Under the pieces are notes generated by a model. That model had not been told where the DNA came from. It made no database searches and saw nothing but the letters and a program-made list of their open reading frames with translations. Positions 2,167 through 31,219 of a stretch of DNA of 64,000 nucleotides are shown piece after piece. Both the position numbers and the translations under genes were made by a program. The stretch is from an uncultured Spirochaetales bacterium (GTDB taxonomy: Bacteria > Spirochaetota > Spirochaetia > JAFGXN01): NCBI GenBank assembly GCA_949289575.1, contig CASEOG010000001.1:105730-169729 (forward strand), given 5' to 3'. Numbering within the stretch: position 1 is the first letter of the stretch; each line of letters opens with the position of its first letter.

Positions 2167-3189
2167 CTATTCAATCAGCTCGCTGTATACGGCTCTGAGC
2201 AGTCTTAAATCGGGTGTATCCTGGGCAATATGCCATATCATGACCCCCCCGAAAGTACGGGCGTAATGACTTTTTTCGCGAATCAGTTTGAGACTGTTGT
2301 AAGTGATGACCTGTCGGCCGCCCTCGGGGGTATCGAGTGTCAGAAAGTCCTCTTTTACCGACTTGCCGGGATACCATTCGTGTACATCGCGGAAAGTCAC
2401 CGATCCCTGGCTGACAGTATTTCCATGCGCATCGAAAGTTCTCTGCCAGCCGTAAAACGGCACGCCGATAACCAGTTTGGAGCGGTCGATTCCGCGCCGG
2501 TTCTGCCAGTAGTCAATCGTTTTTTCCACATGGGCAAACGAAGAATGATCTTTCAGTTCCTTGTCGAAAAGTCCGGACTCATTGTAAATCATCAAATTTA
2601 AGAAATCGAATGCGGTGACAGCCGCATCACTCATTTTTCGGGCGCCCCAATATCCGAAAGCCCCCGAAAGCCGGTACGGTTTATCGGAAACCGCTTTTGC
2701 CAGAGCCGTCACAAAATGGTTGTATTCGGGAATCATCATATCGCCCTCAAAATCGAGATCGATTCCGTCAATCCCGTACGAATCCGCGAACCGCAGCAAT
2801 GCGTCAATAATCACCCGGTGACGGCCGGATCGAAACAGCTGCAGATAGCGTTGCCCCACTTCGGTCTTTGACGTAACATGTCCGCCGCCGATTGAAATAA
2901 AAACACGGGTCTGCCTGGCATGAGCCTTTGCAATAAATTTTCTCAACTCGAAGGGAGTTACTCTCGGTGCCGAAATCTGTCCGTTTCGGTCGAGATTAAA
3001 AAACCATAAATTAATATGCGTCAGATACTCGATTCCCGGATTATACTGTTCGAGCATAATGGCGGCCGCCGGAAAATAGCCGACAACGCGACGGGCTCCC
3101 AGAGCCGATTTATCGGTTTCCGGACGGGTCAGACATCCGCTCAAAAGAAAGAGAATCATCCATAAAAATATGAACCCTTTTTTATTCAC
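2167..3189 (-). CDS. GH18 chitinase-like lipoprotein
   Basis: DGIDLDFE catalytic motif, [22 protein letters not shown]; lipobox LSG-C; GTG start at 3189 behind AGGAG. Confidence 0.88.
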
Positions 3190-19401: not shown

Positions 19402-20499
19402 TCATTCTTTAATAAGGGTCACCCAGGTGTTGGCCGTTTCGGCAGGATATCCGTCCGGACCCGGCTTTCCCCACGTTTCGTCACTCTCCCATCTGTCCCA
19501 CAACGATTGGGGCAGATAAAGAGAAAGTTTCAAATTGTACATTCCTTCCGCTTCGTTGATCTGCTGTCCGCACCAGAGAAAATCGAGATTCGGACAGTTT
19601 CGGGCATCGAGCCGATCCATGTAATTATTGTAGCAGCTTAAATGAATCAGCTTCGGATTACGGGAAACATCGAGCGAGCGCAGACGATTTTGCGAACAGA
19701 CCAGATATTCCAATTCCGGCAAACCGGTCAGATCCAGCTCTTCGAGGCGGCATTCCCCGGCATCAACCGTAACAAGAGACGGGTTTGCTTCGAGACTCAA
19801 CTGTTTCAGCGTATTGCCTCCGCAGGAGACCTCCGTCAGCAGCGGATTTCCGGAAAGATCGAGCTCTCTTAAACGATTATCAAAGCAGTAAAGGCGACGC
19901 AGTTTCGAAAGCGACCGCAAATCGAGAGATTCGATTTTATTGTAGTGACACGCCAATTCTTCCAGATTGACAAAATATTCGAGACCGGTCAAATCGGCAA
20001 TCTTTTCTTCCGAAGGTGTGCTTGACAGTTTGTAGCAGTGAATCACCGTAACCGTTTCCGCCTCTTTTAATGTGATAATGCCGTCCGCATCGAGATCGAT
20101 CTGTTTCTCTCCCGTTTCCGAATTTTCGCCGAAAAGCGAAAACAGATAGGAGCGGAAAAGCGGATCGGGAATGTAAACCTCATCGGCCACCGTCACCCGG
20201 CACTGCTGCCGAAAACCGCCGTCAACGGTCTCGGCCGTCACAGTCGCCGTCCCCGGCAAAACCCCGCGAATGCGGCCGCCCGCTACGGAAACGGTTTGCG
20301 GAGCATCGCTCGTCCAGCGGATTCCCTTTTCGCCAGCCTCCCCCGGAAGAACCGACGCATTCACCGTCTGTTCCTGCCCCAGCTTCAAATTCAGTTCCGT
20401 GCGGTCGATTGTCAAGCCCGATACCGCCGCCGGTTTCCCGGGACAGGAGACAAAGATCATGGCCGCCAATAAAACGATTCCTTTAAAAAACAGTTGCAT
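19402..20499 (-). CDS. Lipoprotein with 1 Big_2 domain and internalin-like LRRs
   Basis: Lipobox FVS-C; one Big_2; IPDPLFRSYL cap; about 7 L..L.C..N.L..LDLS.N repeats. Confidence 0.9.
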   Translation of the reverse strand: MQLFFKGIVLLAAMIFVSCPGKPAAVSGLTIDRTELNLKLGQEQTVNASVLPGEAGEKGIRWTSDAPQTVSVAGGRIRGVLPGTATVTAETVDGGFRQQCRVTVADEVYIPDPLFRSYLFSLFGENSETGEKQIDLDADGIITLKEAETVTVIHCYKLSSTPSEEKIADLTGLEYFVNLEELACHYNKIESLDLRSLSKLRRLYCFDNRLRELDLSGNPLLTEVSCGGNTLKQLSLEANPSLVTVDAGECRLEELDLTGLPELEYLVCSQNRLRSLDVSRNPKLIHLSCYNNYMDRLDARNCPNLDFLWCGQQINEAEGMYNLKLSLYLPQSLWDRWESDETWGKPGPDGYPAETANTWVTLIKE

Positions 20500-20517
20500 A
20501 AAAACTCCTTCCGTTGT

Positions 20518-20543
20518 TTTTAATTAGATTAAACTAATTAAAA
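20518..20543. promoter_or_regulatory. Putative DtxR/MntR-like operator, copy 2
   Basis: Perfect 10-bp inverted arms TTTTAATTAG-attaaa-CTAATTAAAA just downstream of a minus-strand TTGACA(20569-20574)-N17-TAATAC promoter. Confidence 0.7.
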
Positions 20544-20683
20544 TAGTATTATCAAATTAATTGTTTATTGTCAACGGTTTTTTGTTTCGACCGCAATTCT
20601 TTTTCGGAGCGGAAATAGCGGAAAGCAAATTTTTTCCGGAGAATGTTGACTTTTCCGATAAAAGATGATACAAACACCCCTCG

Positions 20684-20713
20684 GAGCGTTATCGTTATGA
20701 TACGCTCTTTTTT
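20684..20713 (+). terminator. Terminator-like hairpin in the leader of the HsdS-like gene
   Basis: GAGCGT(T)ATC-gttat-GATACGCTC-T6, downstream of TTGACT(20646)-N17-TACAAA. Confidence 0.55.
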
Positions 20714-20748
20714 GTTTTCCGGAAAAATATCAAAGAGGAGGAAAAGCG

Positions 20749-21153
20749 ATGAAACAGAAAAACGGAATGTTAAAACTGAAAGATTTGGCCGACATCTCGG
20801 TTTGTCCGTGGAGTCCGAAACGGAAAAGAAGCACGGGACGTTTCCCGTATATCGGCATCAAAGGAGAAGGCGGATTTTGCGATACCGCCAACTTCGAAGC
20901 CGATTCGATTGTTATGACCCGCTTCGGCAGCGGCGGCGGGCGTGTTTTCTATTTTTCCGAACCGGGATTTGCTTCGGGCTGTTTCATTCTGAAAGGAAAA
21001 ACGGTCTCCGATACCCGCGCCCTCTACCGCTATCTCAAAGAACGGCGTTGTCCCCGGTCGACCGTCTCCCCGGGGCATTCGATTCCGCAGATTTCGCTGA
21101 AGGACGCGGAAGAGTTTGAAATCGAAATCCCGCCGGTTGACAGCGAGACGTAA
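20749..21153 (+). CDS. Stand-alone single target-recognition domain, type I RM specificity subunit (HsdS)-like
   Basis: KLKDLADI, GRFPYIG..G..G, I...R.GS.G.V, LY.YL, IPQIS..D.....I.IPP match one HsdS TRD; RBS GAGGAGG. Confidence 0.7.
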   Translation: MKQKNGMLKLKDLADISVCPWSPKRKRSTGRFPYIGIKGEGGFCDTANFEADSIVMTRFGSGGGRVFYFSEPGFASGCFILKGKTVSDTRALYRYLKERRCPRSTVSPGHSIPQISLKDAEEFEIEIPPVDSET

Positions 21154-21420
21154 GCGCCTGCGCAAGGAAAGAGCGGGAAACGGAGTCGTAACGGTTCGGT
21201 AAAAAGAAGCCGGAAAAGATCAGTACCGGACAGCCGGATGAGGAACGGTTTTCCGGCTGCCGCACTGCGGACAGGCCGGTGAAACCGGTCTCACTGACAG
21301 AAACGAACGGGGAACGACGGCTTCGAAAGACCGTCCGCATTTTGTACAAAGATAGAGCCGGGATTCCCCGGGCTGCGGTTCTCTAAAAAAAGACATTGAA
21401 AAACGACCTCCCGATTCCGC

Positions 21421-21774
21421 TTATTTCTCCAGCGGAAAAGCCTCGGTAAAACCGGCATACATAATACCGCCCATATTGTGAACCTCCTCATATCCGAGAT
21501 GTCTCATTTGACGGGCCGCCGATCCGGCACGGGCTCCGCTGTAGCAGTAAATATAAACCGGAGTTTTTTTGTCGGGAACTTTCGATTCGATCTCTTCCGC
21601 AATTTTGTAATCGGGAATATGAAGCGCTCCCCTGACATGTCCTTCGTTAAACTCGTCCGTACTACGGACATCCAGAATCACCGGTCGTGACTGCCTGCGA
21701 ATCATCTCCGGATAATCACCGCCAGGGATTCTCTTACCGCAAAAAAAAGAAACCGTTCTCCTTAAAAAACACAT
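21421..21774 (-). CDS. Rhodanese-like domain protein
   Basis: ILDVRSTDEFNEGHVRGA, IYCYSGARA, LGYEEVHNMGGI. Confidence 0.92.
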   Translation of the reverse strand: MCFLRRTVSFFCGKRIPGGDYPEMIRRQSRPVILDVRSTDEFNEGHVRGALHIPDYKIAEEIESKVPDKKTPVYIYCYSGARAGSAARQMRHLGYEEVHNMGGIMYAGFTEAFPLEK

Positions 21775-21859
21775 CTTTACTTTTCCTATTCACTTGTAAT
21801 ATAATAATTTCAGTATACAGAAAATGAAAAAAAATAACAACCGTCAGGAGCGAATCCGT

Positions 21860-22933
21860 ATGAAAAACAGAATTCTGATTTTTCTAATGGTATTATTTTC
21901 GGGACTCGCGGCCTGCCCGCCGCCGGCAGCCGACGGCAGTACATCCGAAGAAAATCAGACGAAACCTTCGGAACCATTCGATCCTCTGACAGGATTCTTA
22001 CCCGTCGAACTCTACTACGGCCGTTCGCTTTTGAACCAAGAAGAAAAGCAGGCTTACGATTTTATTCTCAAAGCATTTCTGACCGAGCCGGTCACCGAAG
22101 AGCAGAAATCGGCCGCACAAATCACAGTCCGCTTCAAAGAAAACGGCTTCGTCATGACGGAGGCTCAGATCGTTAAAATTTTCGATTTTCTCTCCAAAGA
22201 CGACCCGCGCATGGCTCTGCTGACCTCGAGTGTCCTGCCGCGCCGTTCGGACAATATCGGCGACACTTACGATCCTTCGGGAACCGCGATTGCCGACAAG
22301 GCTCTTTTCGATAATACTTTCAAAGGGATGGCTCTCGGAACTTTTTGGGAAACGTTCCACAAACCGCAAACTGCCGAAATGGAAACGCACATTCTGCCGA
22401 TTCTGAATACCGTCAACGGGAATATGACGACGGCACAGAAGGTCAGAGCCCTCCACGATGCTTTTCTGGCAACAGTCACTTACGGTACCACCAATTCCCG
22501 CGGTGACGGCAATCTGAGGGGAGCCTTTTTGAACCCGTTGGCCGCCCCCGAAGCCGAAATCCGTTATGTGGTTTGTCAGGGTTATGCCGTTTCGTTTCAA
22601 TATCTGCTGATGCGCTGCGGCATTCCCGCCATCACGGTGCCCGGAACCGCACTCTCGACTCCGGGCGATCTCAATACGAAAGGCTCACATGCCTGGAATA
22701 AGGTCTGTATCGACGGTGATTGGTATCTGGTCGACCCCACCCATGACGATTCCCTTGTGTGGAACAGCCCGACCTGCCGCTACGAATATTTTCTCAAAGC
22801 CGACAGTTCGGTTCCGACTCACGAAGAGGGCGTCCTTCCCGACGGTTCGAAAACCGGCTACCCTGTTTTCCCGGAAACCGCGAAAAACGATTTTCCTCTT
22901 GATCAGACGGTTCGGATCGGAGATTCGCAATAA
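21860..22933 (+). CDS. Transglutaminase-like (Cys-His-Asp) lipoprotein
   Basis: Lipobox LAA-C; VCQGYA..FQYL...CGI, HAWNKV..DG.WY.VD.T.DD. Confidence 0.88.
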   Translation: MKNRILIFLMVLFSGLAACPPPAADGSTSEENQTKPSEPFDPLTGFLPVELYYGRSLLNQEEKQAYDFILKAFLTEPVTEEQKSAAQITVRFKENGFVMTEAQIVKIFDFLSKDDPRMALLTSSVLPRRSDNIGDTYDPSGTAIADKALFDNTFKGMALGTFWETFHKPQTAEMETHILPILNTVNGNMTTAQKVRALHDAFLATVTYGTTNSRGDGNLRGAFLNPLAAPEAEIRYVVCQGYAVSFQYLLMRCGIPAITVPGTALSTPGDLNTKGSHAWNKVCIDGDWYLVDPTHDDSLVWNSPTCRYEYFLKADSSVPTHEEGVLPDGSKTGYPVFPETAKNDFPLDQTVRIGDSQ

Positions 22934-23061
22934 CAGAGAGTCCGAAACTTTATTACGGCAGATCCGACGGATTCTTTTCCTCAAACCCGTCAAAGGTGAC
23001 ACTCCGGCTCCTGTTCACAACGGAAATGTAAAACAGTGCTTTATCGGTATGAACGGACGGA

Positions 23062-24060
23062 TCAGAGTCGGCAGGAGAGAACTTCCGACGCCAATTTCCG
23101 CTCTTCCTTCAATTCCTCAATCGACGCATCGATTTGAGCGCGGGCATAATCGTTGATCTCCAAATTAGGAACAATTTCATGATTGCCGTTTGCATCGGTT
23201 CTAAGCGGAAATCCCGTTATCAACCCCGGTTCTGTCCCGTATTCTCCGTTCGATAAAACGGAGACGCTGAACCAATCTCCGGTCGGAGTAGGATTTATTA
23301 ATTTTCGAACAGTTTCAACAATCGCATTGGCGGCTGAAGCAGCTGAAGAAACTCCGCGCGTTTCTATAATCGCCGCGCCCCGTTTTTGAATGGCGGGAAC
23401 AAAGGTTTCCTCGAGCCACGTTTTATCTCGAATCACTTCGGGAACAGGAATTCCGCGAATAGTCGCGTTTGTAAAATCGGGAAATTGGGTTGAAGAGTGG
23501 TTCCCCCAAATAGTCATGTTTTTAACAGCAGAAACATGAACTCCTGCTTTTTGAGCCAGTTGATACTTACTGCGGCTCTCATCGAGTCCCGTCATCGCGA
23601 AAAAATTTCCGACTGGAACTCCCTCTGCATGCCGCAAAGCAATCAATGCGTTTATATTGCAGGGATTTCCCACTACAAGAACTTTCACATTTTTTGAAGC
23701 GTGAGCAGCAATTGCCTTTCCTTGATCGACAAAAATTTTCCCGTTTATATCCAATAAATCGCGGCGTTCCATGCCCGCTTTTCTCGGAGCGGAACCGAGC
23801 AAAAGACACCAATCGGCATCTTGAAAAGCAACCTTAGGATCAGTTGTTGCCGTAACCTCTTTCAACAAAGGAAACGCGCAATCCTCAAGCTCCATCACAA
23901 CACCGTTGCATCTTGTCAAAGCCGGCTCAATTTCAAGTAAATTTAGAATAACCGATCGATTCTCTCCGAAAATATCGCCGGCTGCAATTCGAAACAGCAA
24001 CGAATAGGCAATCTGTCCTGCCGCACCGGTAACTGCAATTCGAATAGGTTTCTCACTCAT
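23062..24060 (-). CDS. mdh: Malate dehydrogenase (MDH type 2 family)
   Basis: [64 protein letters not shown]. Confidence 0.96.
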
Positions 24061-24203
24061 AAAAACCTCGGTGATCGAACAAAATTCAATATTTCTTTTT
24101 ACCATATTCCATTGTTCTTTGCAATCCCCATGTAATCGGAAATTCCGACACAACAGAAAAGCGCCAAATTTAACTGAAAAAAAATGCGCTGTTATGACCG
24201 GCC

Positions 24204-24315
24204 GCCGGAGTTTTCGCCTTCGCTGCCGGAGTTTTCGCCTTCGCTGCCGGAGTTTTCGCCTTCGCTGCCGGAGTTTTCGCCTTCGCTGCCGGAGTTTTCA
24301 CCTTCGCTGCCGGAG
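24204..24315. repeat. 21-bp tandem repeat (VNTR), 5 copies plus 7 bp
   Basis: GCCGGAGTTTTCGCCTTCGCT at 24204, 24225, 24246, 24267, 24288 (one G>A), partial at 24309. Confidence 0.97.
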
Positions 24316-24402
24316 GCTGCGCCGGATGAGGCAGGTCCCGTAATCGTAATTTCCCCGAGCCCGCCAAGGCCTGTTTTAGTATCGACACAAGCGAAAACAC
24401 AA

Positions 24403-24416
24403 AGAGAGAGAGAGAG
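24403..24416. repeat. (AG)7/(CT)7 dinucleotide microsatellite
   Basis: AGAGAGAGAGAGAG at 24403-24416. Confidence 0.97.
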
Positions 24417-24468
24417 TCAGAACAGATAAAACCGTAAAAAATCTTTTAAGCATACAGTCTCCACTCTG

Positions 24469-24497
24469 ATTATAACAGATAATTTCCCGATTATCAA
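24469..24497 (-). promoter_or_regulatory. Near-consensus sigma70 promoter of the microsatellite-containing gene
   Basis: Minus strand TTGATA(24497-24492)-N17-TATAAT(24474-24469) with TG extension. Confidence 0.85.
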
Positions 24498-24520
24498 ATT
24501 TTTAAAAAATCATCGTATAA

Positions 24521-25525
24521 TCAGTCTGTTCTGTTCCGTGAATCGAACGATTCGAGGATTTCTTCTTTAAGAGCGGCCGGAAGAGGGACATATTTCAGGT
24601 AAAGCGCCGCCGTGTCCCCTTTTTCAAAGCCGTAACGAAAGAATCTCATCACGGCAGCCCTGACTTTCGGCTCGTTTTTCCGTATCAAAATAAACGACGC
24701 GGCGGCTATCGGCCAGGCCTCCTGTGCCGGACTGTTTGTCAGGGAAACTGCATAAGAAGGAACCCGATGCCAGTCGGCCGAAGCCACAGCCGCCGCAAAC
24801 GACTGCGGTGACGGCGCAACGGTTTTTCCCGCCCGGTTAATCAGATTGACATAATTCAGTTTGGCCTGCTCGGCATAAGTGTATTCGACATAACCGATCG
24901 AATTGCGTGTCTGCCGCACCAGATTGGCAACCCCGTCGTTCCCTTTGGCGCCGATGCCGGTTTTCCAGTTGACCGACTTTCCGTGTCCGACCGACCGCTT
25001 CCACTCGTCGGAAACTTCATCGAGATATTCGGTAAAGACAGCCGTTGTTCCGGAACTGTCGGAACGGCGGATAACGGTAATGGCGGCATCGGGCAGTTTC
25101 AGCCCCGGATTCAAAGCTGCCATTTCAGGGTCGTTCCATCGCGTCACATTTCCGAGAAATACGGCAGCCAGTGTCTCTCCGTCGAGAACCAGCCGGTTAT
25201 GTCTGTTGCCGTCGATATTAACGACGACCGTGATGCCGCCCGTTACTGCCGGAAACTGCAGCAGACCGGCCTCATCCAGTTCGGTCCGGGACAACGGATC
25301 GTCGGTTGCCCCGAAATCAACGGTGCCGGCCGTAATCTGCCTGATGCCGCCGCCGCTGCCGATCGACTGGTAATTGACTCTGATGCCGGTTTCCTTTTCG
25401 TAAGAATAAGCCCAACCGGCATAAACCGGATAAGGGAAGGAGGCGCCCGCCCCGTTGAGCGTTTCTCCCGCAAATGCAAAAACAGCCGTAAAACAGAGCA
25501 GAACGGCAATTAATTCAGTTTTCAT
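24521..25525 (-). CDS. pstS: Phosphate ABC transporter substrate-binding protein
   Basis: Signal peptide; GAGASFPYP, YQSIGSGGG, DFGATD, RSDSSGTT, GKGNDGV-like, IGYVEY. Confidence 0.96.
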   Translation of the reverse strand: MKTELIAVLLCFTAVFAFAGETLNGAGASFPYPVYAGWAYSYEKETGIRVNYQSIGSGGGIRQITAGTVDFGATDDPLSRTELDEAGLLQFPAVTGGITVVVNIDGNRHNRLVLDGETLAAVFLGNVTRWNDPEMAALNPGLKLPDAAITVIRRSDSSGTTAVFTEYLDEVSDEWKRSVGHGKSVNWKTGIGAKGNDGVANLVRQTRNSIGYVEYTYAEQAKLNYVNLINRAGKTVAPSPQSFAAAVASADWHRVPSYAVSLTNSPAQEAWPIAAASFILIRKNEPKVRAAVMRFFRYGFEKGDTAALYLKYVPLPAALKEEILESFDSRNRTD

Positions 25526-27221
25526 GGTCTTTCTCCTTTTTCTCCTTTTTTTCCCGCAGTAAAACGCGGAACGTATTCCCGCCTTGTTCATTTTCGAAAA
25601 CAGACGCCTCCCCGTTGTAAAGATGCGCAATGTGTTTGACAATCGACAATCCCAAACCGAATCCCGATTTTTGGCGTGATTTCGAGACCGTATAAAACCG
25701 CTCGAAAATGCGTTTGCGCTCCTTTTCGGAAATCGGAGGTCCGTTATCGGCGACTTCCAGAACCAGAGCCCCGTTTTCTTCACCGATAAAAACACGCACC
25801 TCACCGCCGTCGGAATATTTCAAAGCGTTATTGATCAGATTTCCCAGAACCGTTTCCGTATGAACAATATCGATCGCAAACGGGCGTTCCGTCCGATTCG
25901 AGAAACAAATCTTTTTCTCCGACGGCGGAAACACCATTCTCTCAATCATCTCTGCGACACACGTCGGTTCTTCGACGGTCAGTCCCGTATTCTCGATTCT
26001 GTACAATTCCAAAGTCTGATTGACAAACCGGTTCAACCGGACGGAAGAACGGTATATTTTCTCCAGAAACCGTTCGCGCCATTCACCGTCCATTTGCGGA
26101 TCGTTATTCAACGTTTCCGCTGTTCCCATAATGACCGCCAGAGGGGTTTTCAGCTCGTGTGCGATATTGGCTGTCAGCTCGGCTTTGTAATCTTCGTAAT
26201 CGGCACGGGCGGAAATATCGTGCAGAACGACCAGGCGGTTACTGTCAATCGTTCGCGTATAAACCTCAAAAAGCCGTTTCCCGTACGCAAGACGGAAAAG
26301 CGGTTCTTCTCTCGCAAAAATTTCCTGAAAGAAAGCAGCCGTTTCGCAATTTTGTCCGGAACGGGACGGACAGGCTCCTTTTTCGACATCCGCTCCGAAA
26401 AAATCGGATGCACACCGGTTGGATTCCAGAACGTTTCCGTTTTCGTCCGTCAGGATGACGCACTCATCAATATGATTGATAATCTTTTTTAAAGTAGCGG
26501 CTTCCCGTTCGCGAATCCGCTTCTCCCTCAGCCGGCTTCGGTTGATATGATACATCAGCGATGCCGCACTGTTCATCAGCGGCTCGGCGATTTCCGGCAG
26601 GACAAAATCATCCGAATTGCGGCGAATTGCCTTTTCGACAGACGACAGCTGCACTTTCGGCTTCACCTCTTTGTAGGTCAGGTACAATGACAGAAAAAAA
26701 ATCAGACCGGTAAAAACGGAAAAAACAGCAATCGCATTCAGTCGGATTTTTTCGTAAATACTGAGAAACAGATCCCCGTCGGAAGCAACCCTCAAAACCG
26801 GACCGCTGTTCAGCGGTGCCGCATAATAAATCGAATATTTGCCCGTGATTTCGCTTTTTCGCACCGCATAAAAACTTTTTCCGCTCAGCGCCTTGCGAAT
26901 TTCTTCCCTGTATTTGTGATTTTCCACCGAACCGATCGCGCTGCGGTCGAGTGAAGAATCCGCCAGAACCGTGCCGTCCAAACCGATAAGGGTCATTCGC
27001 AAATCTCTCTCCCGGCTCAAATCACGGAAAAGAGTATTGACACTCTCGCTATCGGAAAAATCATATTCGGACGCAATCGTCCAGTATGTCTTCAGAATAT
27101 CTCTATAGAGTGATTCCGCATTTCGGACGGAAAGCCGGTAATTGACAAGCAGAAGCAGAGCCGTCATCACGACAAACGGCACAAAGACGGAAAAAAAGGC
27201 CTTGAGAAAATATTTAATCAT
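25515..27221 (-). CDS. phoR: Phosphate regulon sensor histidine kinase
   Basis: Two TMs, ENH..R.E sensor, PAS-like region, AHELKTPL, NLINNALKY, DNGP, FERFY, GLGLSIVKH. Confidence 0.9.
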   Translation of the reverse strand: MIKYFLKAFFSVFVPFVVMTALLLLVNYRLSVRNAESLYRDILKTYWTIASEYDFSDSESVNTLFRDLSRERDLRMTLIGLDGTVLADSSLDRSAIGSVENHKYREEIRKALSGKSFYAVRKSEITGKYSIYYAAPLNSGPVLRVASDGDLFLSIYEKIRLNAIAVFSVFTGLIFFLSLYLTYKEVKPKVQLSSVEKAIRRNSDDFVLPEIAEPLMNSAASLMYHINRSRLREKRIREREAATLKKIINHIDECVILTDENGNVLESNRCASDFFGADVEKGACPSRSGQNCETAAFFQEIFAREEPLFRLAYGKRLFEVYTRTIDSNRLVVLHDISARADYEDYKAELTANIAHELKTPLAVIMGTAETLNNDPQMDGEWRERFLEKIYRSSVRLNRFVNQTLELYRIENTGLTVEEPTCVAEMIERMVFPPSEKKICFSNRTERPFAIDIVHTETVLGNLINNALKYSDGGEVRVFIGEENGALVLEVADNGPPISEKERKRIFERFYTVSKSRQKSGFGLGLSIVKHIAHLYNGEASVFENEQGGNTFRVLLREKKEKKEKDHEN

Positions 27222-27885
27222 CGATACCATATCCTACTTTGGGGACCGACTTAATACAGGAACCGGCTGTTCCCAGTTTTTTCCGTAAAGTCGATACATG
27301 AGAATCTATTGTCCGGGTCAGAAAATCGCAGCTGTATCCCCACAAAGAATTCAGAAGGACATCGCGTGAAAAGATTTCATGGGGGCGGGAAAGAAAAAGT
27401 TTCAGAAGTTCGTACTCTCTGTGGGTCAGAACGACTTCGTTGCCGCCGACAAAGACTTTTCGGACGGAATCTTCCATTTTGATATCCCGATATTCCAGGA
27501 TTCCGGAGGTCCCGCCGACGGTTCTGCGTAAAAGAGTATTGACTTTTGTCACAAGCATCTCCATGGAAAACGGCTTGGGCAGATAGTCATCGGCACCTTT
27601 ATTGAGTCCCGAAATAATATCTGCCTCCGCATTCATGGCGGAAATGATAATCACCGGAATTTTAACAAATAAGTCACGGCTGCGGATGATTGTCAGAAAA
27701 TCGAGTCCTTTCAGTCCGGGCAACATCAGATCGAGAAGGATCAGATCAAAAATTTCCTTCTCCGAAAGGATCAGTGCTTCGTTTGCGTTCGAAACGTGCT
27801 GCACCCGAAATCCCGATTTTTGCAAATTATAAACAATCAGATCGCTTATATCGGGATCGTCTTCAATCAGCAGAATCTTCTTCAT
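27214..27885 (-). CDS. phoB: OmpR-family response regulator PhoB/PhoP
   Basis: ILLIEDD, LLDLMLPG, GADDYLPKPF, LTHREYELL, RTIDSHV..LRKKL. Confidence 0.9.
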   Translation of the reverse strand: MKKILLIEDDPDISDLIVYNLQKSGFRVQHVSNANEALILSEKEIFDLILLDLMLPGLKGLDFLTIIRSRDLFVKIPVIIISAMNAEADIISGLNKGADDYLPKPFSMEMLVTKVNTLLRRTVGGTSGILEYRDIKMEDSVRKVFVGGNEVVLTHREYELLKLFLSRPHEIFSRDVLLNSLWGYSCDFLTRTIDSHVSTLRKKLGTAGSCIKSVPKVGYGIDD

Positions 27886-28537
27886 TCTCGGATTCCTCAT
27901 ATTCCAGATTCCCGGAAACGGTAAACAAAACAGCCTCGGCGATGTGTTTGGCGTGATCGGCCATCCGTTCGAGACGGCGCGCCGCATTAATCATATGGAC
28001 GCCGATGTTGACATCGTATCCGGAACCGTTCATTGTCTGAATAATATCTTTTACGGCATCGTTTTTCAAGAGATCGATTTCGATATCGTTTCTGATGATT
28101 TCCATTGCCTTTTCCTGATCCATCAGATAATAGGCCGTAACCGACTCGCAGACGGAATCGGCCACCTTTCCCGCCAAAAGCCGCAGTGCTTCCGACCGGA
28201 AAAACAGATCGGGAGCCGACACTTTCAGCATCCGGCGGCAGACATGTTTGGCATGATCGCCGATTCGTTCGAAATCGGCCGATGTTTTTACGGCCGAAAG
28301 AATATATCTCATTTCGCCGCCCCGCGGCCAATACAACGCAATGATTTTACCGCAAAGCGCATCGCTTTTGATACTGTCGTGGTCCAGACGGATATCCCGT
28401 TCGATGACACGCTGTGCGGCCTTCTCATCCGCATTCAGCAGAGCCGTTTTCATATCGGATGCCATCTCTTTGCAAACTGTGCAAATCCGTGCCGATAGCT
28501 GTTTGAGTTCCCTGTATTCGGGACTGTCGGAATACAT
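27863..28537 (-). CDS. phoU: Phosphate signalling protein PhoU
   Basis: DFERIGDHA and RLERMADHAKHIAE repeats. Confidence 0.93.
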   Translation of the reverse strand: MYSDSPEYRELKQLSARICTVCKEMASDMKTALLNADEKAAQRVIERDIRLDHDSIKSDALCGKIIALYWPRGGEMRYILSAVKTSADFERIGDHAKHVCRRMLKVSAPDLFFRSEALRLLAGKVADSVCESVTAYYLMDQEKAMEIIRNDIEIDLLKNDAVKDIIQTMNGSGYDVNIGVHMINAARRLERMADHAKHIAEAVLFTVSGNLEYEESENEEDSAD

Positions 28538-28550
28538 GCTGCCTCCCTGT

Positions 28551-29321
28551 TTAACCGAACTGACCGGTAATATAATCTTCCGTCATCTTGACTGTCGGTG
28601 ATGTAAATATTTTGTCTGTTTTTCCGATTTCAATCAACTCCCCCATATACATAAAGGCCGTCCAATCGGAAATTCGTGCGGCCTGCTGCATATTGTGAGT
28701 CACAATCACCATTGTTGTCTGACCTTTCAGTTCTCTCATCAGGTCTTCGATTTTTTTTGTCGAAATCGGGTCCAAAGCACTGGTCGGCTCGTCAAACAGG
28801 ACGACATCGGGCTCGGGAGCCAGGGTTCGGGCAATCGACAGGCGCTGCTGCTGACCTCCCGACAAACCGGACGCCGGTGTCCGGAGACGCGACTGCACCT
28901 CTTCCCAAAGGGCCGCTTTTTTCAATGCCGCCTCAACGCGATCCGTCAATTCCTGCCGGTTTCCGATTCCCTTCAGCCGCAATCCGTACGCTACGTTATC
29001 GAAAATCGACATCGGAAACGGTGTCGGTTTTTGAAAAACCATACCGACACGACTCCGCAGCCCGGTCAAATCGGTTCCCTTTTCCAAAATATTTTTTCCG
29101 CGGAACAGAATCTCTCCTTCGTAACGGTTGCCCTTATAAAGATCATGCATCCTGTTCAGGCAGCGCAAAAAAGTTGTTTTTCCGCATCCCGACGGCCCGA
29201 TAAGAGCCGTAATTTTATTCTTTTCGACAGAAAGCGAGACGTTCCGCACCGCCGTCTTGCTGCCGTAGCTGAAAGAAAGATTTCGTGTCTCGATTTCGCA
29301 TCGAAAATCCGGTTGTGTCAT
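28551..29321 (-). CDS. pstB: Phosphate ABC transporter ATPase
   Basis: [64 protein letters not shown]. Confidence 0.97.
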
Positions 29322-30163
29322 AACACCTGTCTCCGTTTTATAATTTGCTTCAGAATAATATTCAAAAAAAGAATAAAGACCGTAATGACGAGAGAAGAGG
29401 CCCATGCCGACAAAACCCATTTTTCGTAAGGCGAGCCGGCATATTGAAAAACGGTCACCGTCAGCGACGGCACGGGACCGCTCATATCTGCTGTCAGATA
29501 ATTGCTGTTAAACGAGGTAAAAAGCAGCGGCGCCGTTTCGCCGGCGATACGGGAAACGGCCAGAGAAACCCCCGTAAAAATACCGGAAAACCCGCTTCGG
29601 AACACAATATCCTTGATGACCTTAAAATAGGGAGCCCCCAAGGCAAACGCCGCCTCGCGCATTGTCCAGGGAACCAGACGCAGCGACTCTTCCGTTGTCC
29701 GCATGATGACGGGCAGAATGATAAACGCAAGCGCAACGGCTCCGGCCCATCCGTTGAACCCGCCGAACGGATGAACCAGAAGCGAGTAAACAAAAGTTCC
29801 GATAATAATCGTCGGAATCCCGATAGCGACATCGGCCAGGTTACCGATAAACCGGCCGACGCGGGATCCGTTTCCGTATTCGGCCAGATAAATGCCGCCC
29901 AAAATACCGACCGGAATTCCTATAATCGCGGCGACTGTCGTCAGAAGAAGCTGTCCGAGAAAAGCATGGCGCATACCTCCCTCGTTTTCAATCCAGGGAG
30001 GAGCCGCATCGTCGGTAAACAGCTCCGGACTGAGCCCCGCAATCCCGTTCCGAATCACACTGAAAAGAATGGCAAAAAGAAAGCAGACCCCGACAACGGC
30101 CGCGGCCGAAGATAAAAACAGCATCAAACGCCCCCGAAGTCTTCTGATAACCGTCGGTTTCAT
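29318..30163 (-). CDS. pstA: Phosphate ABC transporter permease
   Basis: [39 protein letters not shown]. Confidence 0.95.
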
Positions 30164-31089
30164 GATTTTTTCCCCGCTATGCAGAATTTGGCAACCGCCA
30201 GAGTCGAGAAGTTCAAAATAAACAGCAGCAGAGCCAGCAGAAACAGCGACGACATTTGCAGACCCGATGCTTCGTTGAACTCATTCACCAGAACTCCGGT
30301 AACGGTCACATACGGATCGAACACGGATGTCAGTCTGATATTCATATTCCCGATGATATAAGCAATCGCCATTGTTTCACCGAGTGCCCGTCCCAAAGCA
30401 ATGATGATTCCGCTGCGGACAGCTCTTCCCGCATACGGCAGAGAAATACGGCGCACCACTTCCCATTTTTCACAGCCGATTCCGTAACCGGCCTCTTTCA
30501 GCTCCTTCGGAACAGAGTCGAGTGCCTCTTTGGCGACTCCGGCAATAAACGGAAGTACCATGACACCGAGCACGAGTCCCGCTGTCAGAAACCCGATTCC
30601 CCCGGCATAATGAATTTCGAAAAAAGAACCGATAAAAGGCAGTCCGGAAAAGAGAGCGGAAACCCCTCTTTGCAGCGTCACCTCGATAAACGGCGCAAAA
30701 ACGAACAGCCCCCACATACCGTAAATAATACTCGGAATCGCGGCCAGCAGCTCGACGGCGGTTCCGACGAATCCTTTCAGAAAGGCAGGACACAACTCCG
30801 ACAGGAAAACGGCAATTCCGATTCCCATCGGGGCGGCAACGGTAACGGCAATCAGAGAGGTCAGAATCGAGCCCAGAAGCGGCCGCGCCGCTCCGAAGAG
30901 GGATTCGGCATAATTCCACTCGACGGAAAACAAAAATCCGAAAAAGCCGAATTCCCGGAGTGCCGGCACGGACTCGCGCAAAAGGGAAAGAAAAATTCCG
31001 GCGCAAATCAGAAAAACGGAAAGTGCCGAAAGCAGCGAGAAAAGCCGAAAAAGGCTATCTTTGTAAAAAAAGGTGCGGACTGCTTTCAC
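30160..31089 (-). CDS. pstC: Phosphate ABC transporter permease
   Basis: ELLAAIPSIIYGMWG, GRALGETMA. Confidence 0.95.
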   Translation of the reverse strand: MKAVRTFFYKDSLFRLFSLLSALSVFLICAGIFLSLLRESVPALREFGFFGFLFSVEWNYAESLFGAARPLLGSILTSLIAVTVAAPMGIGIAVFLSELCPAFLKGFVGTAVELLAAIPSIIYGMWGLFVFAPFIEVTLQRGVSALFSGLPFIGSFFEIHYAGGIGFLTAGLVLGVMVLPFIAGVAKEALDSVPKELKEAGYGIGCEKWEVVRRISLPYAGRAVRSGIIIALGRALGETMAIAYIIGNMNIRLTSVFDPYVTVTGVLVNEFNEASGLQMSSLFLLALLLFILNFSTLAVAKFCIAGKKS

Positions 31090-31135
31090 GATTTGTTATC
31101 CTTTAACGTTCTATACACCAAACCGCGCCGAATAA

Positions 31136-31163
31136 GGTTATCGGGATGTTAAATAACTGTAAA
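31136..31163 (-). promoter_or_regulatory. Pho-box-like direct repeats upstream of pstC
   Basis: Minus strand TTTACA-N5-TTAACA-N5-ATAACC with 11-bp period, matching the PhoP-type TT(A/T/C)ACA-N5 repeat. Confidence 0.7.
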
Positions 31164-31219
31164 ATCACGAATCTCTTTTACAATTTGACATTCGACTGAT
31201 TTTAAACTACAATAACCCC

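Follow-up and report, generated by a model that had tools for sequence, protein, structure and literature searches.

The unit analysed here is a short stretch of the minus strand between pstS and mdh, in which a CT-dinucleotide tract in the signal-peptide region of a small open reading frame (ORF) determines whether the start codon is joined to a lipoprotein-like frame. Coordinates are those of the window, meaning the whole 64,000-nucleotide stretch of DNA under study, which belongs to a draft genome (G000; 1.95 Mb in 8 contigs, 49% G+C) that was compared with sister genomes G001, G002 and G003. On one side the unit is flanked by pstS (24521-25513 and upstream, minus strand), and on the other by mdh (23062-24060, minus strand), which encodes a malate dehydrogenase of 332 aa.

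A short unit with a CT tract between pstS and mdh

The unit opens with a sigma-70-like promoter on the minus strand (24469-24497), composed of TTGATA (24497-24492), a spacer of 17 nt, and TATAAT (24474-24469), with TG preceding the -10 hexamer. The match covers 11 of 12 positions, and the site is the sole promoter-like match in a scan of 23900-24800, for which shuffled sequences average 0.7. A GGAG ribosome-binding motif (24462-24459, minus strand) is followed, after 5 nt, by an ATG at 24453-24451. If transcription begins ~7 nt past the -10 hexamer, the leader would be ~10 nt long. The (CT)7 tract (24416-24403, minus strand; read as (AG)7 on the plus strand) occupies codons 13-17, within the signal peptide's hydrophobic core. 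At this tract length the ORF (24376-24453, minus strand) encodes 25 aa, consisting of a signal-peptide start and an early stop, which corresponds to an OFF state. The lipoprotein frame (P0001; 24401-24192, minus strand) holds the lipobox VFAC, with its Cys codon at 24387-24389, followed by a short conserved Gly-rich stretch, (SGSEGEN)5, SGGRS, and a stop codon. This frame joins the ATG at 24453 with 5 or 8 CT units only, and the (CT)8 product would have 87 aa, including the first 18 residues. The acidic linker repeat is encoded by a variable-number tandem repeat (VNTR) at 24204-24315 on the minus strand, with a 21-bp unit in 5.3 copies and 98% matches. A further minus-strand ORF of 76 aa with PAAKAKT-type repeats, here called the basic frame, spans 24170-24400, and (CT)6 would join it to the ATG at 24453. 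All of the features named in the sequence-only reading were present: the promoter, GGAG, the ATG at 24453, (CT)7, the 25-aa product with its exact sequence, the 21-bp VNTR, the SGSEGEN frame, and the open frame at 24170-24400.

Several observations bear on the lipoprotein character of the encoded product. The mature part of the lipoprotein frame contains 12 acidic and 2 basic residues (pI ~4). The natural alleles P0002 and P0004, described below, and a related protein of G002 pass a PROSITE-like lipoprotein pattern; P0003, whose stretch is shared by the window frame, passes a looser lipobox pattern only, owing to a Cys at -4. A lipoprotein pathway is encoded in G000, as represented by LGT (PF01790, 225.6 bits) and LspA (Peptidase_A8, PF01252, 103.6 bits). 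A Pfam scan of P0002 returned no families. The natural alleles show the lipoprotein frame to be the true reading frame.

To place the tract in its genomic setting, G000 holds 19 dinucleotide tracts of at least 5 units, and all four of those with at least 6 units are of the CT/AG type. Two CT/AG tracts of at least 7 units were seen versus 0.011 expected, and four of at least 6 units versus 0.2 expected, under a first-order Markov model that disregards codon bias; the (CT)7 tract is more than chance. A length of at least 6 units is given as the cut-off for candidate phase-variable dinucleotide tracts in one published source (PMC6321876). Against that cut-off the tract has 7 units, lies in a 5′ coding region, and moves the ATG in or out of the productive frame according to the number of units. 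The longest dinucleotide tract of the genome is an (AG)9 (contig C3:394136-394153; L086:3637-3654) that is in frame, encoding RERERE, in a 364-aa family-4/group-1 glycosyltransferase. At 1.1 kb from it, a G12 run (C3:392971-392982; L086:2472-2483) splits a family-2 glycosyltransferase into ORFs L086:2142-2507 and 2426-3085, the first of which covers only profile positions 2-105 of 168 of Pfam Glycos_transf_2; the split gene is either a phase-variable candidate in the OFF state or a homopolymer assembly error. The other two CT-type tracts, of 6 units each, are found at C3:185500-185511 and C3:379498-379509; the first is intergenic, ~20 nt upstream of a promoter-like TTGTAG, 17 nt, TATAGT, and the second is in frame within an ORF.

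Natural variation in tract length, frame and repeat number

A search of 5.8 billion proteins with P0001 as the query identified three natural in-frame alleles, namely P0002 (78 aa, 9 member sequences), P0003 (55 aa) and P0004 (55 aa). Each has a basic N-terminus, a hydrophobic core, and Cys at residue 21, within VFGC in P0002 and P0004 and VFAC in P0003. P0002 and P0004 open with MLKR and have the same mature sequence, and P0002 continues through four SGSEGEN units to the same SGGRS end as in the window. P0003 and P0004 both finish in ...ENPRR at 55 aa, which may reflect a cut at a contig end or a further frame change in the repeats. The window lipoprotein frame is 84% identical to P0002, with 9 differences among the 58 residues aligned in the mature N-terminus. 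With their signal peptides and lipobox Cys at residue 21, these alleles uphold the proposal that the lipoprotein frame is the best-supported ON state. A HMMER search with P0002 of 1.84 billion representatives gave 8 matches at E ≤ 0.001, including P0003 and the family member P0008; the other six (338-1373 aa), aligned mostly or only over the linker (query residues 18-44 to 51-76, in 4-10 stretches), were taken as low-complexity matches.

Of 20 sequencing runs listed as holding the stretch, four (X1, X5, X6 and X17) were compared as assembled contigs, which represent a consensus at a depth of 5-9. The X1 contigs match the window at 24270-24900 with no differences, (CT)7 included; X1 may be the source sample, in which case the reads are confirmed and the match does not represent an independent strain. 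X5, X6 and X17, from two other studies, have 4 bases fewer at the tract and carry substitutions at 24410 and 24416 that interrupt it; as a result the ATG lies in the lipoprotein frame, and the reading matches P0002. The interrupted allele and the CT-run allele are thus separated by two T-to-C changes and a 4-base length difference, all inside Leu/Ser/Phe codons. Where X5, X6 and X17 leave parts uncovered, the assembly has broken at the VNTR, and the gaps have no biological meaning. Two allele types can be distinguished: (i) type A, with a CT run and a window-like mature sequence (the window, P0003, P0005 and P0006), and (ii) type B, with an interrupted pyrimidine stretch (P0002, P0004, X5, X6 and X17).

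Tract lengths within type A were assigned by resetting the window tract to 2-10 units by script and comparing the translations with the stored proteins. The best fit for P0003 was 5 units (45 identical residues in a row) and that for P0005 was 4 units (42 in a row), and P0006 shows the 4-unit pattern by eye. The natural CT series is accordingly 4, 4, 5 and 7 units, of which only 5 is ON, the values of 4 and 5 being deduced from protein frames. Gene finders placed P0005 (80 aa, on 4 contigs) and P0006 (93 aa) in the basic frame, starting at another ATG, which is what such programs yield when the lipoprotein frame is broken. Within its repeats P0006 moves out of the basic frame into the acidic one and must therefore carry a second indel. 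The number of full repeat units also varies, with 5 in the window, 4 in P0002 and 3 in P0005, while X17 is without 63 bp, or 3 units fewer than the window. Two expectations of the sequence-only reading were therefore borne out among relatives: CT number is not fixed at one length and sets the ON or OFF state (4, 4, 5 and 7, with the same reservation for 4 and 5), and VNTR copy number differs from allele to allele.

Outside the tract and the VNTR, a hand count of the window against X17 over 24331-24400 found that 8 of 10 substitutions change the amino acid. An exact 29-base pattern around the start codon had no matches in genome contigs and none in metagenome contigs. Across 41 genomes, G000 among them, a DNA search with the 371-base unit gave only two matches outside G000: a tail of 63 bases in G001, and 26 bases in G038 that are attributed to chance. 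X5 is identical to the window from 24417 to 24706, while over 24707-24850, in the 3′ part of pstS, 20 of 144 positions differ; this indicates a recombination mosaic within the gene.

The parent lipoprotein family and the genomic neighbourhood

A search with P0002 of six genomes of the order gave matches in G000 and, weakly (E 4.9e-4), in a 224-aa lipoprotein of G002. The latter has a similar N-terminus and one GGEGEN unit, followed by a body that is missing from the window ORF. The end of this body is nevertheless preserved in the window on the far side of mdh: residues 189-224 of the G002 protein match 23063-22956 with 89% identity (tblastn, E 6e-14), defining a 36-codon C-terminal remnant of the family's globular domain (22953-23063, minus strand) that begins at the mdh stop codon. 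The mdh gene sits in the place of the lipoprotein body. In G003, the gene immediately downstream of pstS encodes a 277-aa family member (L089:605-1438); it has a promoter of its own and a 15-bp repeat, in 12.9 copies, that encodes PGEEV units. The same family gene lies downstream of pstS in G001, where it is cut by the contig end (L090:1-245). Only 7 nt separate the TATAAT of this family gene from its ATG, an arrangement suggestive of a leaderless mRNA. Over the body, the proteins of G003 and G002 share 41% identity (E 2e-34). A tblastn search of G000 with both proteins found no full-length family copy.

A family search returned 17 relatives, which are unnamed and have no Pfam family. Ten of these matches were taken into alignment A2, and P0008, P0019, P0025, P0026, P0028, P0029 and P0030 were left out as short or partial. 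The 12 full-length or near full-length members of A2 share a lipobox Cys, a variable acidic linker of GE(N/T)PG-type repeats, and a conserved beta-rich domain of ~165 aa that is absent from the window ORF. P0008 is a G002-type allele in which the linker unit is expanded to five copies; repeat linkers vary across the family, and the linker VNTR is therefore a family trait. In the full-length family genes of G001, G002 and G003, the signal-peptide region is without a CT run. A Pfam scan of the G002 protein found no families. Its AlphaFold2 model (mean pLDDT 68) has disordered residues 1-46 and a beta-rich body; a Foldseek search of the PDB with the model gave no match at E ≤ 0.001, the best value being 0.028 and the matches being generic beta sandwiches.

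The window ORF resembles this Opitutales lipoprotein family in the place of the Cys (near residue 21), in the short conserved stretch that follows it, in an acidic linker of Gly/Ser/Glu/Pro repeats, and in its position downstream of pstS, as in G001 and G003. It possesses the N-terminal features of the family, namely a signal peptide with lipobox and an acidic linker, and lacks the C-terminal domain of ~165 aa. By comparison with its relatives, therefore, the unit is a 5′ fragment (signal peptide plus linker) of a lineage-specific lipoprotein family with full members of 224-277 aa, and not a complete mini-gene. The self-contained mini-lipoprotein that had been read from the sequence does not stand: the body is missing, a 36-aa remnant lies past mdh, and the genome has no full-length copy.

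Comparison with the sister genomes locates the breakpoints of the rearrangement. DNA homology between G002 and the window covers 21975-23063 and resumes at 31178, such that the 8.1-kb block at window positions 23064-31177 stands in the place of 657 bp in G002, which contain most of the G002 lipoprotein gene. Besides mdh, the stub, pstS and a histidine kinase, the block has further ORFs, probably the rest of a pst-pho operon. Neither mdh nor pstS was found at E 1e-30 in G002, which is 94% complete. At the other junction (24150-24212, minus strand), the last repeat unit meets conserved sequence that lies upstream of mdh. The similarity of G001 to the window (98.9%) begins at 24212 and extends downstream; the G001 DNA before 24212 is unrelated, and only the last few codons of the small ORF are kept; the stop codon of that ORF, on the mdh side, thus lies in sequence that G001 shares as its mdh upstream region. 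In both G001 and G003, a second family member is present beside their own pstS.

Three GTDB species of the genus share 97-99% DNA identity in mdh and its downstream flank (window 20064-24212 versus L002 and L005), while the pstS protein is only 79% identical, and each of the three has different DNA upstream of mdh, which suggests recent exchange or a mosaic history. Both window-type and G001-type junctions upstream of mdh occur in the single gut metagenome X6, where two related strains or species must therefore coexist.

The host itself is a gut member of the Opitutales (Verrucomicrobiota), from chicken gut, and not a spirochaete. Among GTDB species genomes, the best mdh relatives (99-100% identity) are two metagenome-assembled genomes (MAGs) labelled ‘uncultured Spirochaetes’, probably a mislabel judging from the next relatives (71-76% identity), which are Candidatus Spyradosoma, Candidatus Spyradenecus and numerous animal-gut MAGs of the Opitutales. 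The placement in Opitutales follows from these relatives beyond the two closest MAGs, and the gut habitat from the runs holding the stretch, which are bird, chicken and other gut metagenomes.

Proposed slippage and decay, and alternative readings

On balance, and with slightly better than even confidence, we regard the locus as a hot spot of slippage in a gene stub that is dispensable and probably in decay, and that can flip ON and OFF at low frequency. An mdh-bearing segment occupies the place of the family domain, and the promoter, start, signal peptide with lipobox, and acidic linker are kept; the ORF therefore ends just four codons past its repeats. In the window allele, the codons of the signal-peptide core, rich in pyrimidines, form an uninterrupted (CT)n, and replication slippage would alter n. 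Specifically, 5 units read through to the lipobox, 7 units shift the frame to a stop after 25 aa (OFF), 4 units also break the lipoprotein frame, and the gain of one unit in the window allele, to 8, would restore it. We infer that slippage caused the length differences, and (CT)7 would be able to revert at a useful rate. As a sign of decay, CT-run alleles are out of frame in three of four cases (the window, P0005 and P0006), with P0003 alone in frame. Further signs are the missing domain, the 4-unit tracts too short to switch readily, the second indel of P0006, the loss of the unit in G001, and the high proportion of amino-acid-changing substitutions. The ON product would comprise signal peptide and linker only, without the family domain; type B alleles nonetheless stay in frame.

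A number of observations weigh against decay as the whole account. The type B frame is intact in five of five observations over the parts covered, with the lipobox kept despite 9 amino-acid differences from the window allele, a hint that an intact ORF is under some selection. X5 and X6, which cover the start region (24417-24531), show no difference from the window there, while the mature part varies; X6 has a T>C at 24532. Tract lengths of 4 and 5 were read from protein sequences and not from allele DNA. CT/AG tracts are over-represented in the genome, and the G12 and (AG)9 tracts both fall in glycosyltransferase genes, repeat tracts in such genes being a classic pattern of organisms that use contingency loci. 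MutS, MutS2 and MutL are encoded in G000, and with MutS and MutL present slippage rates may be low under either account.

These points lead to the possibility that the unit is a true contingency locus, in which a tether-only acidic lipoprotein is functional, selection keeps (CT)n as a switch that turns the gene ON and OFF reversibly and at high frequency, and VNTR copy number sets how long the surface-exposed acidic tail is. We consider this distinctly less probable than the decaying stub, although several lines of evidence are in its favour: the tract exceeds the 6-unit cut-off in a 5′ coding region, ON and OFF alleles are both natural, the two allele types have the same promoter and start region and differ in the mature part, all interrupted-tract alleles are intact, CT-type tracts are enriched (four seen versus 0.2 expected), and two glycosyltransferases of one locus in the same genome carry the G12 and (AG)9 tracts. 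Against it, the ORF is without the conserved family domain and takes its stop codon from the mdh-side junction; the 4-unit OFF alleles are poorly mutable and look locked off, one of them with a second frame change; the unit is lost in G001; mismatch repair genes are present; and the contigs, which give a consensus only, show no length heterogeneity within samples. Adaptive phase variation is possible but unproven. A related and rather tentative proposal is that the stub has been re-used as a switchable, length-tunable acidic surface tether within a small repeat ‘phasome’, together with the G12 and (AG)9 glycosyltransferase tracts of one polysaccharide locus.

The surviving promoter and short ORF might instead serve mainly as an upstream promoter or leader for mdh, with the frame irrelevant to the cell, an explanation that is compatible with the others and that we judge unlikely. 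No terminator-like site was found between the small ORF and mdh, and shuffled sequences fold as well as 24240-24140 does (z 0.99); conservation of the promoter stretch contrasts with divergence of the ORF; and one contig from a metatranscriptome library (X17) spans mdh and the ORF up to 24450. Yet a contig over two genes is not equivalent to a single transcript, RNA libraries can hold DNA, and the end of the X17 contig at 24450, near the predicted transcription start, was not counted as evidence of transcription or of a start site. Moreover, the mdh genes of G001 and G003 are nearly identical to that of the window and have different DNA upstream of 24212 and 24139, respectively, indicating that mdh does not need the stub promoter.

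The sequence-only reading had also envisaged three states, with a basic membrane-anchored peptide at (CT)6 in addition to OFF and the acidic lipoprotein. The basic frame is indeed open for 76 aa, would join the ATG at 6 units, and was picked by gene callers in two other assemblies (P0005 and P0006). However, P0005 and P0006 begin at a different ATG, without the signal-peptide start, and P0006 leaves the basic frame within the repeats; moreover, none of 8000 candidates scored was an allele joining the lipoprotein ATG to the basic frame. Plus-strand ORFs at 24071-24343 and 24184-24429 are also open across the VNTR, which implies that openness comes from repeat composition, and we judge the basic frame to be open by chance. 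Separately, P0007, which has an Ala/Lys-rich tail and a ribosomal-protein Pfam family, was set aside as unrelated. The OFF and lipoprotein frames hold, the basic state is left without support, and a three-state switch is very improbable; an evolved three-state switch of surface charge is not the reading we favour. Equally improbable is an assembly or sequencing error that produced the 7-unit length in an invariant in-frame gene. The genome is a draft in 8 contigs, and the G12 tract elsewhere also breaks a gene, as homopolymer errors could do, but the X1 contigs (with the caveat that X1 may be the source sample) reproduce 24270-24900 with no differences, and other natural alleles are also out of frame at the tract.

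Returning to the proposed slippage-prone stub, its closest mechanistic parallel is oipA (hopH) of Helicobacter pylori, in which a CT run in the signal-peptide coding region determines ON or OFF by its unit number, strains differ, and interrupted or sparse CT patterns also occur, as described in one source (PMC10564699). The likeness is one of mechanism only: a CT run in the signal-peptide region sets the frame, and the interrupted patterns resemble the type B allele. OipA is a full-length Hop outer-membrane beta-barrel, whereas the window unit is a lipoprotein stub without a Pfam family and unrelated to Hop, and switching has been measured for oipA but is putative for the window locus. The same CT switching occurs in H. 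pylori sabA and hopZ. To our knowledge, H. pylori is without MutS1/MutL repair, unlike G000 with its MutS and MutL.

The opa genes of Neisseria carry many copies of CTCTT pentamers in the leader-peptide coding region and form a multigene family of intact adhesins with high measured switching rates. They share with the unit a pyrimidine repeat derived from Leu/Ser/Phe codons of a hydrophobic leader, in which slippage sets the frame, and differ in the pentamer unit and multigene adhesin family versus a dinucleotide at a truncated single locus. Vlp/Vsa-type lipoproteins of Mycoplasma combine a conserved signal peptide with a charged tandem-repeat C-terminus of variable copy number, and a simple repeat toggles their expression; there, the switch usually lies in the promoter or acts by inversion, and the products are abundant, complete antigens in gene families, in contrast to the single locus and truncated gene of the window. 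Within the gut Verrucomicrobiota, the capsule of Akkermansia muciniphila undergoes phase variation by an invertible promoter, and slip-strand mispairing at long mononucleotide repeats is considered possible in cps1 (PMC13343947). The similarity lies in a phase-variable surface structure of a gut Verrucomicrobiota member, and the difference in the use of an invertible promoter, not a coding-region repeat. In the portion of the literature covered, invertible promoters were the only phase variation found demonstrated in Verrucomicrobiota, and no description of repeat-based switching in Opitutales or Spyradosoma was found.

For annotation, the ‘missing’ small gene proves instructive, being a frameshifted and truncated lipoprotein gene whose alternative frame has twice been mis-called as a protein in public assemblies (P0005 and P0006). 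In addition, the allele series within one species shows how a CT tract can arise. Coding-region repeat switching is known mainly from Helicobacter, Neisseria, Haemophilus and Campylobacter; if the tract truly switches, this mode of variation would extend to a gut commensal of the Verrucomicrobiota. Should the unit belong to a repeat phasome, it would be the first coding-region dinucleotide switch described in that phylum, and a contingency locus born when a few point changes fell in signal-peptide codons rich in pyrimidines.

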